Part shown: positions 10,401 through 16,400 of the stretch, piece by piece
Layout: each line of letters opens with the position of its first letter
Position numbering within the stretch: position 1 is the first letter of the stretch
Assembly: GCA_951406725.2 (NCBI GenBank)
Contig: OX597817.1
Location: 99,944,001 to 100,008,000 of the forward strand
DNA from: Octopus vulgaris
Taxonomy: Eukaryota
Length of the DNA stretch: 64,000 nt
Reading direction: 5' to 3'
The notes under the pieces: generated by a model
The model's input: the letters and a program-made list of their open reading frames with translations, nothing else
What the model was told of the DNA's origin: nothing
The model's database searches: none
Made by a program: the position numbers and the translations under genes

Positions 10401-13400
10401 GTTGCTTACCTCTCCCAAATCATGGGAACATTTCTTCCTCACCATCCTTTGTACTTTGCATCTTACTTGGCAACCTCACTAGTGTCATTAGCATAAAAAA
10501 ACCACACATAATATACACTGTAAGGTGGTTGGCATTAGGAAAGGCATCCAGCCCTAGAAAACATGCTAAATCCAACATTGGAGACATAGAGTAGCACTGC
10601 AGCTTGTTGGATCCTGTTAAACCATCTAACCTATACCAGCAGTGAAAAACAGACATTGAATGATTGTGTGTGTGTGTGTGTGTGTGTGTGTGTGTGTGTG
10701 TGTGTGTGTGTATGCAGACACTTACTTCACCACCGGGATATCTGTAATGGAATTTGTCTTGATCTCTGAGGGCAAATTCATCTGGATGCTTGTCATGAAT
10801 TTCTTCGTATGTCATGCCTTCACAGATGCCCTATAAATAAGAGAAAAAGTTTCCTGAATATGTTGGTGCATGAGACCACTTAGATATAACATGAAAACAA
10901 AAACAAAAAAACTATCGAAATCCTTATTTTATACCAGTTTTGCCTTATAAAAACAAATTTCATACTACCCCTACAGTTTCTTACAGATTATCTTCATCTT
11001 AATATTTAGGTGAGGATGGTACTTAGCTTTCAAGTTTTTTGAGACTTAGACACTGAAGCTTGAATTATATGAATAAAATGGCATACCATTCGTAAACCAT
11101 CATTTAAAAAATATCTTGTTAGATGCTGCCTTATTTAATGGAATAAAGAATTTTGTAATAATGTGAAGAAACATATGTAATTATACAAAAATTTTGATTA
11201 ATTTTATAGATTTCAAATTTGTCTATGGTGAGATTTGAAACCATAACATAAATAAATAAAAGTAAAATTAAAAAGTAAGACTTACAGCATCAATTTCATT
11301 TAAAGTTTTCCAATGCTCTGTAGGACTATCAATATACTGAGCAGTTTGCTTTGTCCTTTTCATTTCACTTGTCCATACCTTAAGATCTTGGATATTTTCG
11401 TTCTTCACAAACTCAGATAATGATCTAGCATACTGAAAGTAAATAAATCAACAGGTTTAGTAAATGAGAAACATTTTTAAAAGCCACAGAAACTAACAGT
11501 ATAATGCTAAATATTTTTCTTAGCAGAGAAGGTCTAATAAAACCAAAATATATCAGATGTTATCAGACTTAACAAAGATCAGACTCACTCCAAATTTGCA
11601 TGTTCTCCATTCAATCTTTAATCAATTTAAGTTTCAGTTGCCTTCTTTGCCTTCATAGGAATTAAAAACAGAAAATTCTTTATTACTAATGACTTGTCAT
11701 TATGTTTTATTTCAGTTGGTTAAAAATCCTTTTCAGCTCACTAAGTTAGTTTGCACATAACTTATTATACGGGATCAAATCTCAGGACTGAAATAATCCA
11801 TATTAAAAATGTGTCTAAAATTACTTTTACAGTCATCTCACCACATAACTTTTGAAGTAACTAAGAAATAAAGTTGTAGAAGTTGAAATAACTCAAGGCT
11901 ATTATACTACGTAATACTGCAAGTCATATTTAATCATAATTTAAAATCAACACAACAAATTCAGTCTTGTTAATATAGCTTTATTCAAATAGCTTTGAAA
12001 GCAATTCTTCAAACCTGCCATCCACGATCAGAGAGATCGCTATCACCACCAATCTTCCCTTCCAGGTTCATCAAACTTTCTCCATGCTGAAAAATGAAAT
12101 AAAAATAATTTCCATTTTATTTTAATACAATTTTTCTACAACAGGATTAATTAAGTAAAGATTGTTTGCCAACATAACATGGCAGTCCTGGGTTAGGACG
12201 AATGTTGCTGTAATTTAGTCCCAGGAGACATCATATCCAGCTGGCTATACGACATGATCTGTATCCTTATATTTTTTAACAAGGGAATCTAGCACTCCCA
12301 CTAAGCTCAAAACAATATCTAAACATTCATCCTAAACCAGGACTGCCATGTTATGTTGGCAAACAATCTTTACTACAAAGTACTGTTGCTAAATATCTCC
12401 CATTGTGAGATTTAAAAATAGTAATTTTCTAATTTATAGATCAATGACAAGTTGTCACTTTGAAAACTATATATTTTGAATGGGAATTTGGCAGCATCAC
12501 CTCTAGCCAAACAACATTTTTTGTTGTTTTTTTTTGAAGAACTCTAGCTGAATTTTTTGTGTGAGGTCACCATTGTTGGGTGGTAGTGAATAATTGAGAA
12601 AAATGAGAAATTATGCAGAAGCTACTGGAGGTCGAGTTCCCCTACACCCACATGCGCTGAAACAGGAGATGCTACAGTGGAATGGAGAGCTGGTAAAGAA
12701 ATATAGTAGTATGACAGAGAAGGAAGGGTGAAATATAAAAATGACCTTAACAGAGGAGGAAAAAGTGAAAATGGAAAAAAAGACGGTCATATTCAGAACA
12801 TTTTCGAATAAAAATAGAAGAACTGAACATGTGCCGCAGGAAGAAATAGAAGAAATTTGGGAAGAACATATAAAAGACAGCATAGTGTTCTTTATGAGAG
12901 GAAAGAGATATGCATCTATAGTGGTAACCTTTATATCAGAAGAGGAGGTGGAAAAAACCTCCAACAGGCTGATACAGGGAGAAAAATGGATTTTGATACC
13001 AAACTGTTTGGATAAAAGAATTGTCAGAATTAGGGTGGGAAGAATCCTACTGTGGATAGATCCAGAGCGGATAATATTCGGAGATAAGGAAGGAAAGTGA
13101 AGATGTGAAGAAGAGCATGATAAGCCGAACCCAACAAGTGAAGCGCTGGGGCTACAGATTAGAGATAATTTGTGCAGTGAGCCCAAAATATTACAATGAA
13201 ATACCTGAAACTTTAGAGCTACCAAATGAAGAAACGCTGGAGATAATGTTGGAGGGGAGACCCCCAAAGTGTTACGAATGTGGTGAAAGAGGGCACTTAT
13301 GAAAGAAATTCCCTAGAGCAGCAGTGGAATTTGTAGAGAAGAGTATTCAGGAAAATATAAACAGCATTTTATGGAGGTGAAAGCAAGAAAAAGAGTGAGG

Positions 13401-16400
13401 AGGGATAGTGGAACTGAAGAATTACAAAGCAATGGAAGAGGTAATCCAACCTACGACAAGAAACAGGTAAGATTTACCTGTAGGATCACCAGTAAAGGAC
13501 TTGCAAGTACATAAACATTCAGACCCACAGACACACAAATGCAAAGACATGAAAAAGCACTGAAGTATAGACAAACAGAAACAAGATAACTCAGAATTAC
13601 GGAAACCTAAAAGCATAGACACACAGACGAATAGGCAAATGAACACACAGATACACAAACACATGGGTACACAGACACAATCAAAGGAAAGCCAAGAATT
13701 ACAGAAATACAGATACAAAAAACACAAGACACACAGAAGCAAGGTTTTTAATGAAATAGGACACCCAAAAGTTAAAAGAATTTCAAAATCGAAAGACATT
13801 ATGAAAGAGTGAATCCACTGGGGCTGGAGGTGGATGTTGAACCTCGCGCCTTGGTGGTGAATTATGTGGATGACAAGAAGATGAAATGGTAAGTCGTGAT
13901 TTATTTTAAAGACTATGAAAGACTGAGAAAAACATTTGGTTAAACTTTTTGTTTTAAAAAAAGGAAAATAAGAAAATCCTGTAACTATTGAATGAACATT
14001 TGTTTAAAATGTTTTAAAATTGTAAGGTGAAAACGAAAAGGGAAGTCGTGCTTTCGCCTCGGAGCAGCGCTGGAAATTGTTATTTGAAATGTGAAGTTTT
14101 AAAGGAAAAAGAATTCACAGTTTCATCTTGGAGTGGGAGCAAGATAGCCATCTTATTTTCATTGTAATTTAATTCATTTTATACTCATCCTTTCATGTGT
14201 TTTTTGTTCCCACATGTCTGTATATGTCCCCTCTGTGTTTAGGCCTTGTGCCTGTAATAAAGAATAAACCTCTAGCCGAACAAATATTCTGTGCTGATGA
14301 AGAGAAATAACCTGGAAAATACACATATTGTTTTGAGCTGAATGGGGGTGCTAGATTCCCTTGTTTAAAAATATAAGGACACAAATTGTGTCGTAATGTC
14401 AGCAGGAGATGATGTCTCCTAGGACTAAACTACAGCAACATTTGTCCTAACCCAGGACTGCAATGTTATGTTGGCAAACAAATCTTTACTACAAAGTACT
14501 GATGCTGAATATCTCTCATTGTGAGATTTAAAAATAGTAATTTTCTAGGATTAATTAAGTATAATATTCTGATATGAAATAATACATTGGAATCATTGAC
14601 CAAAATATTTGCATATCATTTTAGCATTTAGGACAAGAAGATTATATTTACAAACCCTAGTGAGGTAAATTGTTCTTGGAAGGACATGAATATTCATGAG
14701 GTAGTATACAACACGGCTTTGGAGATGTCCTGAAAATATGAACAAAGCAATTCATGTTAATTAGAAATACTAAAATAATTAAAATAAGTATGTATTGTGG
14801 TTTAGTTGGCAAATTAAAAAAAATGAATTTATACAAGACTCAGAATTGAGATGACCTATTCTAAACTATCTATAATTCTATGATACAAAACTTCCAGTTC
14901 TAAAATTTCACATATAAATACTGGCTTTCATAATTCTCTATAAAAATATTTGGTAAACTTATGTTCTAAGCACCAGTTTAATACTAATAAACATTTATTT
15001 TAGTAACTTATTTCTCCAAATCCTTGATTGTTTTTAAATTAAAAAATATAGGGTGTATATTACCCCAATTTGGAAATAAAAGGGTTAAATAACATTCTTT
15101 TTTATTCTCTTCCTTGTTTAAGTCATTAAATTTTAGTACTTATAATGTTCTTAATTGAGAGGATATATATATATATATATATGTTTAAATGACTAAAAAT
15201 ATCTATATTAATGGCCTGAGTTCCCCCCACTCATTTTGTTATAATTTTGCAATGAAATTTGAAAATCTTTTGTAAACTTAATGCTGACTTCTACCAAAAA
15301 AATGTTCATTTTCTAGACTCTTGAGTGAAAGATGGAAACAAGTTTGGTGGGAATTGAATTCAAGAACATCTCACTGAGATGGATTTTATATTAAAAAGAT
15401 TAAATGAAAAAACAATAATAAGAGAAATAGTTGATTGATTGACTTCCAACTTAATGATTTATGTTGCAAAAACTATATCTATGAAACCTTACATGTTAGA
15501 ATTAAAAAACACAAGTCTAAGCGGCTGTTGTTGAAAATATATTAGGCCGAAATATTCCCCAGAGAACTGCTCTCATTTTTGTGATGATGCATCTCTTTTG
15601 ACCACTGGCATTCTTTATAATACTCAGAAGACATTTTTTTTTTGACACCTTTCAAGTGTTAGTCCACTAATATTGTCGGTGTTACTTTTATAATTATTAG
15701 GTTGTCTGGTAAGTTCTGTGTTTTTAAGCTAAATCTTTTAAAGCTTCATTGAACACACCTGAAACATAGCACAGTTAAAACTTTGGTGTTGCTTAAAGTG
15801 GTAGTGCATCTCCTCTTTGCTTCTGACTAAAAATCGATTTATCTTTCATTCCAGTTACCCCTTATTGACATTTGAAATGGATAACCAAAAATTTCATATT
15901 CACATTATATTGCTTTTTTTTTTTAAAAAAAAGAGAAAATGCTGCAAAGATTTGCAAAAACATTTGTGAAGTTTATGGTGATAATGCTGTAGGTGGTTTG
16001 CAAAATTTAAAGTTGGAGAGTTTAGCTTGGAGGATGACAGTTTCAGTGGAAAACATCAAAATTGGATGAAGATGTTTTGAAGGCAAAAATCAAAGGAAAC
16101 TCAAATATCTCGATTAGAGAACTTGCAGAGAAGTTGGAAGTTTCTGAAAGTACAGCTCATGACACCTAGTGAATCTAAGATACGTTTCTTGCTATAATGT
16201 ATGTGTCCCTCACAAACTCTCATAACTGGTATTCCGTTTGTGATATTCTTTTGAAACGGAATGAAAGCATGCCTTTTTTAAACAACCTGTGCCTGGAAAT
16301 GAAAAATGGATTGTGTACGAAAATGTAGTGCAAAAAAGATCCTGGAGCTTGCATAAGGATTCCCCAAAACAGCAACCAAAGACAAATATCCATGCCAAAA

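Follow-up and report, generated by a model that had tools for sequence, protein, structure and literature searches.

Why does a decayed element encoding only the first open reading frame (ORF) of a retrotransposon lie a few nucleotides (nt) upstream of a hammerhead ribozyme core, inside a repeat unit that is bounded by a target site duplication (TSD) of its own? The question is raised by a stretch of the Octopus vulgaris genome (GenBank assembly GCA_951406725.2, contig OX597817.1, positions 99,944,001 to 100,008,000 of the forward strand; hereafter the window, 64,000 nt in full, to which the coordinates below refer) that holds two such composites, E1 (12158–14546) and E2 (47129–49554, minus strand). 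In each, an ORF1-only element (the cargo) occupies a hammerhead-bearing unit of retrozyme type (the host). An earlier note on the window had taken the presence of two pairs in 64 kb as an argument against chance nesting and for long co-evolution of unit and cargo. We consider it probable that the decayed ORF1-only copy in E1 stands at one fixed base of the repeat, likely placed there by the enzymes of an autonomous long interspersed nuclear element (LINE) of L1/Tx1 type, and that this base is likely the start of a promoter of the small nuclear RNA (snRNA) type.

Insertion sites of the ORF1-only and autonomous families

The ranking of loci took account of similarity to the element and not of the flanking sequence, and the set may include a few segmental duplicates; five of 91 candidate 3' junctions (L009, L010, L013, L028 and L115) were removed before counting as false or as belonging to another family. 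Genome-wide, 23 E1-type 3' ends (E1 included) carry the exact pattern and 22 of them are at a site of retrozyme type, 14 directly before a hammerhead and eight in tandem, with a host-type TSD and another family member downstream (the host was traced for six of the eight); the last lies elsewhere. To this extent the argument against chance nesting stands, but the pair of composites in the window adds little to it, because E1 and E2 belong to different cargo families and different host families. Among the 30 top-scoring E2-type loci, 22 insertions are direct, two are in tandem, three are off-target and three have the 5' end alone at the site.

Families that carry ORF2 behave in the same manner. 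The 30 top-scoring loci of an older autonomous ORF2 family, reached via an ORF2 3' end at the site in host family h1, comprise 27 direct insertions, one in tandem, one off-target and one without a 3' end. For the young ORF2 family the corresponding 30 loci divide into 20 at retrozymes, four in tandem, five at position +1 of U2 snRNA genes and one other. At the retrozyme site, insertions are known from at least seven diverged host families. Each cargo TSD corresponds to the sequence of its own host, with a length of 14–20 bp in most cases, and the 3' ends consist of AATAAA and a further ~5–9 nt, followed directly by the TSD, with no poly(A) tail.

Full-length autonomous copies, flanked by a 14-bp TSD, are found at +1 of U2 genes. 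One of these (L258, with long open ORFs and a 14-bp TSD) is 97–99% identical over 5.5 kb to all seven of the retrozyme-inserted copies with which it was compared, and a relative of the young family has one 3' end at +1 of U1. Pfam matches to the ORF2 of L258 (Exo_endo_phos, RVT_1 and zf-RVT) are above cut-off, as are those to the endonuclease and reverse transcriptase (RT) of L144, and the best PDB match of the autonomous partner's ORF2 is human L1 ORF2p (E 2e-58). The zf-CCHC domain of ORF1 scores above cut-off in L144 and E2 and slightly below it in L258. The nearest named RT match of the autonomous partner is an octopod sequence (65%), with no named Tx1 reference among the RT matches listed. 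Judged from these junctions and domains, insertion is target-specific and is the work of an L1/Tx1-type lineage. Tandem arrays that mix ORF1-only and autonomous elements, with single TSDs between them, are seen in retrozymes and in a U2 gene (L206–L220, L263). A long ORF2 downstream of truncated E1-type copies was considered as a sign of a full-length E1 parent and was set aside, these copies being nested or chimeric insertions.

At least five ORF1-only lineages are present at retrozyme-type sites or inside cargo. Their ORF1s are 31–50% identical to one another and 24–36% identical to those of autonomous elements, and on this low identity the cargo was rejected as a simple deletion product of the present autonomous family. 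Between the E2 ORF1 and 12 relatives dN/dS is 0.10–0.28, showing, by this sequence measure, that the ORF1 of the E2-type lineage is under purifying selection; counting against any broader reading, these pairs all share E2 and are non-independent, and they concern the E2 family, with the E1 family outside the comparison. Look-alikes of the E2 ORF1 in the atlas fall in CCHC and ZCCHC3-like clusters, which may serve as a lead. A further family is inserted antisense near the end of the cargo ORF1, at nearly one spot in h1 and h3 composites (cargo nt ~1385–1406 in L011–L013 and L019/L090; ~1473 in L010). Its ORF1 is 50% identical to that of the E1 type (L090, one copy compared) and its sites have no ATCAGT at −59 on that strand.

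The host units are ~350 nt in length with a GC content of 33–35%, are arranged in tandem, lack an ORF and have a 15-bp TSD. Helix I of a type I hammerhead forms at least five of six pairs (G–U counted) in 43 of 57 parsed copies, a parse made without a shuffle control and with family h5 outside the set; the paired strands differ from one host family to the next, and helix III is short and palindromic. When eight loci were searched against Rfam by E-value, a single HH9 match appeared, below cut-off and among simple-repeat noise. In 30 h1 loci examined, nearly all empty, the usual form is an inverted arm joined to about one unit or more, with 3' ends clustered at two places; inverted arms and preferred 3' ends are a known pattern of Penelope-like elements (PMC8557442). 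By these sequence features the hosts fit non-LTR retrozymes, as outlined in parts of PMC7229834 and PMC4209133 (LTR, long terminal repeat). Their architecture is consistent with a non-autonomous Penelope-like derivative, and a comparison with one abundant Penelope-like family found no homology between the hosts and its pseudo-LTR.

Several observations on the ribozymes may be added. Loci L177–L205 represent a very young and abundant Penelope-like family (open frames up to ~717 amino acids, copies 97–98% identical) that has, downstream of the ORF, a hammerhead-like motif whose core reads CCGAAGA, lacks ATCAGT and is untargeted in 30 of 30 loci. The hammerhead core of L034, L054, L043, L046 and the young h5 and h8 hosts has T at position 3, several with A at position 8, a combination that would keep the hammerhead 3–8 pair. 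The h2 hammerhead has C at position 4 and a T–T mismatch at the base of helix II.

Position of the nick and the upstream motif

If the site is fixed, what fixes it? The hexamer ATCAGT is found 55 to 61 nt upstream of the base at which the TSD starts (the nick) in 23/24 h1, 14/18 h2, 7/8 h3, 7/10 h5, 12/13 h8 and 1/1 h6 sites, its chance occurrence being 0.075% per position. In snRNA genes with an exact match it starts at −57 to −61 from +1 in 12 of 12 U1 and 25 of 25 U2 genes. The motif is thus about as far from the nick as it is from +1 of U1 and U2, which makes the nick base the likely start of a promoter of snRNA type carried by the repeat. Proximal sequence elements (PSEs) of vertebrates lie ~60 bp upstream (in a passage of PMC4494074), and newt satellite 2 is described as having a promoter of this type (work cited in PMC2220036). 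An AT-rich box lies near −30, and the upstream motif ends mostly 38–39 nt from the nick (40–42 in h5). The distance from the nick to the hammerhead core is more variable, at 25–32 nt; insertion offsets mapped relative to the core, as the earlier note had proposed, are non-random. Comparison of h2 with h3, a close relative, shows the spacing of nick and upstream motif unchanged at 38 nt, while relative to the core and to the surrounding sequence the nick has shifted by 6–7 nt.

A second line of evidence comes from the 5' TSDs. Seven h3 5' junctions have AGCTACC, or something very near it, whereas all 100 h3 sites listed (of 140) read AGCTAGC. L036, L132 and the U2 copies have the recipient TSD together with a second TSD-like piece from another host, and nt 1–17 of U1 are present in L267. 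The 5' TSDs therefore appear often to be donor-derived and to start at the nick, as expected of transcription from that base.

A number of points weigh against the promoter reading. The tally of ATCAGT covers only sites with an exact match within 90 nt upstream and leaves out inexact ones; h4, which reads ACCAGT, scores 0/2 in it. The hosts are homologous, such that their shared spacing amounts to approximately one observation and the independent support is that of U1 and U2, to which the likeness of the hosts is loose beyond 7–13 nt. Of 30 young-family junctions, 29 begin with ATCG, as does U2. Insertion is at the usual base in L321 and L270 too, where the motif is at −50 and about −20, respectively, a point that would lapse if the deletions postdate insertion. 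All six off-target insertions lack the motif at −59; three of them have a TATA-like box at ~−30 (by eye; chance 3.5% each). The upstream motif is absent from the U6 promoters examined, and a U6-type promoter for the hosts was accordingly rejected: the position of the TATA box agrees, that of the upstream motif does not. Comparison with one abundant Penelope-like family did not reveal an autonomous Penelope partner for the hosts, and the Tx1 label is one that we presume from architecture and from likeness of ORF1. Given the local ATCG, L321 and L270, the off-target sites and the homology of the hosts, a coupling of insertion to the promoter is an inference only, and one that probably includes a term for the local sequence. 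Amongst the U2 genes sampled (within L242–L272, L303–L317 and L222–L241), at least three promoter types occur with ATCAGT at ~−59 as their sole common part; the sampled U1 loci cluster on C18, and most sampled U6 matches lack a promoter and look retroposed.

Could sequence by itself select the site? Targeting by the endonuclease of each subfamily, helped by pairing of 3' read-through RNA to the nicked strand, with the benefit of a promoter arising through later selection (only copies at +1 being transcribed and able to breed), would account for the ATCG of the young family and for the unchanged base in L321 and L270. It would also accommodate L267, which bears the head of U1 and lies at a site unrelated to U1 apart from 6 nt in common with the U1 start, and it follows the rule stated for the Tx1 clade in a passage of PMC4494074, namely that the endonuclease determines the target. 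A word of 4–6 nt is, however, insufficient for a specificity of ~90% or better in a genome of 2.8 Gb, and near-identical cargos occupy hosts that share only one to three bases at the nick (h2, h4 and h5). The nick moves with the upstream motif between h3 and h2, and selection on breeding copies leaves dead-end copies at the site unexplained. On balance we regard pure sequence targeting as unlikely. Much less credible still is the proposal that the hammerhead core, as DNA motif or as structure, sets the nick 25–32 nt upstream of itself. The core is indeed 25–26 nt from the nick in h1, h3, h5, h6 and h8, but the offset is 31–32 nt in h2 and h4, the young family enters U2 at +1 and its relative U1 at +1, both of which lack a hammerhead, and the active Penelope-like family with a hammerhead-like motif and no ATCAGT is uninserted in all 30 loci. 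Anchoring by the hammerhead was rejected on the variable offset and the U1/U2 targets.

Under the reading we favour, in which the nick is the start of an snRNA-type promoter, the endonuclease and RT of an autonomous L1/Tx1-type LINE would place the ORF1-only element at the retrozyme site, and transcription of the inserted element would then be driven by the host promoter and begin with the first TSD base, leaving element RNAs with the donor TSD at their 5' end. Read-through would take the transcript across the second TSD to the hammerhead, and this ribozyme could form a 3' end that needs no poly(A) tail. Site choice would combine promoter position with a short local preference, namely a pyrimidine followed by A-N-C (ATCG in the young family), and base pairing between read-through RNA and the target may assist. 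In ORF1-only elements, ORF1 may be kept because it acts in cis, and the Penelope-type machinery of the host would also copy some composites. A fuller account can be offered only tentatively: the LINE would be tethered, probably via ORF1p, to SNAPc/TBP and would integrate at +1 of RNA polymerase (Pol) II snRNA-type promoters, with retrozymes as the main reservoir supplying promoter, ribozyme-made 3' end and Penelope-driven spread, and with ancient ORF1-only parasites targeting in cis by means of their own ORF1p.

Cargo and host in E1, E2 and their relatives

The idea that unit and cargo form one composite, the parts of which diverge together over the long term and spread together, is suggested by three observations. 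Cargo and host distances correlate within h2 (Mantel r=0.47, p=0.001, n=17), the host sets of E1-type cargos (h1, h3 and h6) and E2-type cargos (h2, h4 and h5) do not overlap in the sample, and L014 and L016 look like composites copied with host-type inversion inside the cargo. Over all hosts, however, there is no correlation (r=0.14, p=0.12, n=22), so that the co-phylogeny test proposed in the earlier note is positive inside h2 alone, where the correlation would reflect shared age or the copying of composites. E2-type cargos only 4–10% apart occupy hosts 44–49% apart. In the host tree, which omits seven rows whose host parts were short or broken, h2 is nested inside h3; in the E2-type cargo tree, h4 and h5 copies are interleaved with those from h2. 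The E1-type tree requires eight host changes over 22 rows and three hosts (no shuffle control). Approximately 90% of the host sites listed are empty, with seven of 100 h1 sites (among the matches listed, of 228 exact sites) and nine of 100 h3 sites (likewise, of 140) being filled, and empty and filled units occur in one array. With close cargos in distant hosts and most units empty, long co-evolution is not supported: host switching is the rule, and cargo and host agree inside one host family only. We judge co-divergence of a composite to be highly improbable, and as a general explanation it is refuted, surviving as a minor route of dispersal.

Independent insertion is shown by L002 and L003, where empty units flank the cargo, and by L069, where the cargo is 5'-truncated and the upstream part of the host is intact. 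In L014 and L016, truncated cargo is joined straight to the inverted host arm, making copying of the composite by host machinery likely; hitchhiking with the host is thus a probable, if minor, dispersal route for some composites. L221 (G000 C9, 26.11 Mb) has a head-to-head arrangement, its inverted arm containing cargo pieces together with the 3' end of an autonomous element and a filled host site, and may be a composite copied with inversion.

E1 itself is a single insertion bounded by a 15-bp host TSD, AGGATTAATTAAGTA, with the same letters on the left (12143–12157) and right (14547–14561). Reading from the left, it begins with an inverted 5' host arm of the Penelope type (12158–12318, minus strand; the reverse complement of 14325–14486, with 17 of 161 positions differing), all that follows being on the plus strand: a partial direct unit (12322–12431, equivalent to 14437–14546 with 7/109 differences) and the 5' part of a unit. 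The latter includes a PSE-like motif (12440–12461) with a putative promoter role, 59 nt before the nick, that reads ATCAAT in E1 and ATCAGT in sister copies and U1/U2 genes, and a TATA-like tract (12468–12475) 31 nt before the nick (compare TATA at −30 in four measured U6 genes). The 5' copy of the 16-bp cargo TSD, ACCTCTAGCCRAACAA, follows at 12499–12514, its first base being the presumptive +1 of the host promoter. The 1,753-nt cargo, a non-autonomous L1/Tx1-type element (12515–14267), has a T-rich 5' end, AATAAA at 14256 and no poly(A) tail; its decayed ORF1 (12603–13892) has at least 14 stops in each frame and a zinc-knuckle remnant at ~13270–13311 (zf-CCHC being above cut-off on the E2 homologue). 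After the 3' copy of the TSD (14268–14283, one difference from the 5' copy) comes the 3' part of the host unit (14284–14546, family h1; ~346 nt in E1, with a period of 352 nt in an empty tandem). Within it, the type I hammerhead remnant (14288–14330) comprises the 5' strand of helix I, the CTGATGA core (14294–14300), helix II and GAAA; helix III is deleted, 5 nt of it and 2 nt of helix I having gone relative to sister copies. No Rfam match reached the gathering score anywhere in the window.

This anatomy agrees with the earlier note as to the extent of the cargo and both TSD copies, the end of the TSD 10 nt before the core, the host with its own 15-bp TSD and 5' inversion, and the sense orientation of cargo to ribozyme. 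E1 is a dead relic, with its broken ORF1, deleted ribozyme helix and mutated motif, but is useful as a marker of the system. Divergence of its internal host repeats (6–11%) and of the cargo from its nearest kin (12–13%) indicates that cargo and host copy are of similar age, which is compatible with independent insertion and with arrival as a composite alike.

E2 contains a younger ORF1-only element (~47356–48998) with a 15-bp TSD in a host of family h2, has ATCAGT at −60 and holds an empty site in its inverted arm. Contigs from four sequencing runs with four organism labels (run types guessed or unknown) span both E2 host and cargo, a statement of presence only. The E1 and E2 ORF1s share ~34% amino acid identity over 242 aligned residues, in keeping with the description of the E1 cargo as a diverged and decayed homologue. 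The TSD starts 32 nt from the hammerhead core in E2, as the earlier note had it, and 26 nt in E1, not 25. The two hosts had also been credited with the same 3' end position. In fact the 3' end is at −68 from the nick in E1 and −131 in E2, with the inverted arms ending at −128 and −67, respectively; the two preferred host termini are swapped.

Other features of the window include a 152-nt imperfect palindrome immediately outside the 3' end of E2 (46968–47119), an RT remnant with a weak PHD-like match inside it (39291–41036, minus strand) and, surrounding this RT element, a pair of inverted repeats ~5 kb apart (37115–37303 and 42211–42398, 96–100% complementary). On the plus strand are a LINE ORF2-like piece (25400–25873), a GIY-YIG-like Penelope-type piece recognised by eye (29482–30090) and a Pif1 helicase piece (55101–55886).

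Relation to known systems

Passages of PMC4494074, PMC6719617 and PMC4640811 already describe Tx1 families with other transposons or U2 as their targets, examples being Xenopus Tx1L in Tx1D, crocodilian Tx1-Mar in Mariner-N4_AMi and Keno in U2 (PMC4494074, PMC4640811), and a figure legend in PMC4494074 names families with satellite and U5 targets. The octopus lineage has target specificity with a TSD in common with this clade but differs in its targets, which are hammerhead retrozymes and base +1 of U1/U2, in the use of both target classes by its young family, in the lack of a poly(A) tail and in having passengers that encode ORF1. The Keno target site lies inside U2. HAL1 (half-L1) elements likewise encode ORF1 only, have TSDs and depend on a full-length LINE (PMC5322556). 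The octopus elements resemble them in being ORF1-only and TSD-flanked. HAL1 derives from mammalian L1; the octopus elements are site-specific, non-mammalian and without a poly(A) tail, and have an ORF1 of zinc-knuckle type whose kin are local ORF2 families, making them HAL1-like in their working without being members.

The hosts share with retrozymes and Penelope pseudo-LTRs, as described in passages of PMC7229834, PMC4209133, PMC8557442 and bioRxiv 10.64898/2026.07.22.740005, a low-GC tandem unit of ~350 nt, a type I hammerhead with a short palindromic helix III, a TSD of >4 bp, a 5'-inverted truncated arm and two preferred termini. Targeting by a LINE is absent from those passages, and the octopus ribozyme is a predicted one. 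Position-specific integration tied to a small-RNA promoter recalls TRE5-A/TRE3 and Ty3: according to a passage of PMC5911963, the ORF1 protein of TRE5-A (Dictyostelium, L1 clade) binds TBP, Brf1 and Bdp1, and Ty3 enters at the start site. Those elements follow Pol III (TFIIIB/C), whereas the octopus motif is that of Pol II U1/U2 genes and insertion is in sense at +1. A promoter-factor role for octopus ORF1p, as in TRE5-A, is a hypothesis by analogy. A literature search that had Repbase, Dfam, supplements and two cited primary papers outside its scope found no publication in which LINEs target retrozymes or position +1 of U1/U2, and a term search of the main text of the octopus repeat annotation (PMC13282606) finds no snRNA, hammerhead or ribozyme.

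Insertion at one base of the retrozymes and at the first base of U1 and U2 genes likely borrows their promoter, to judge from the shared motif. To what was known, the present analysis adds purifying selection on ORF1-only lineages (in the E2 family), 5' TSDs that come from the donor, and a probable hitchhiking of some cargo on its host. The finding adds a target class for site-specific LINEs and offers a simple rule for target change, the promoter being followed rather than the sequence. The conserved ORF1 of ORF1-only elements makes the use of ORF1 in HAL1-like elements a testable question. Retrozyme transcription is poorly known, and these insertion sites would map retrozyme start sites and would support the use of snRNA promoters by retrozymes beyond newts.

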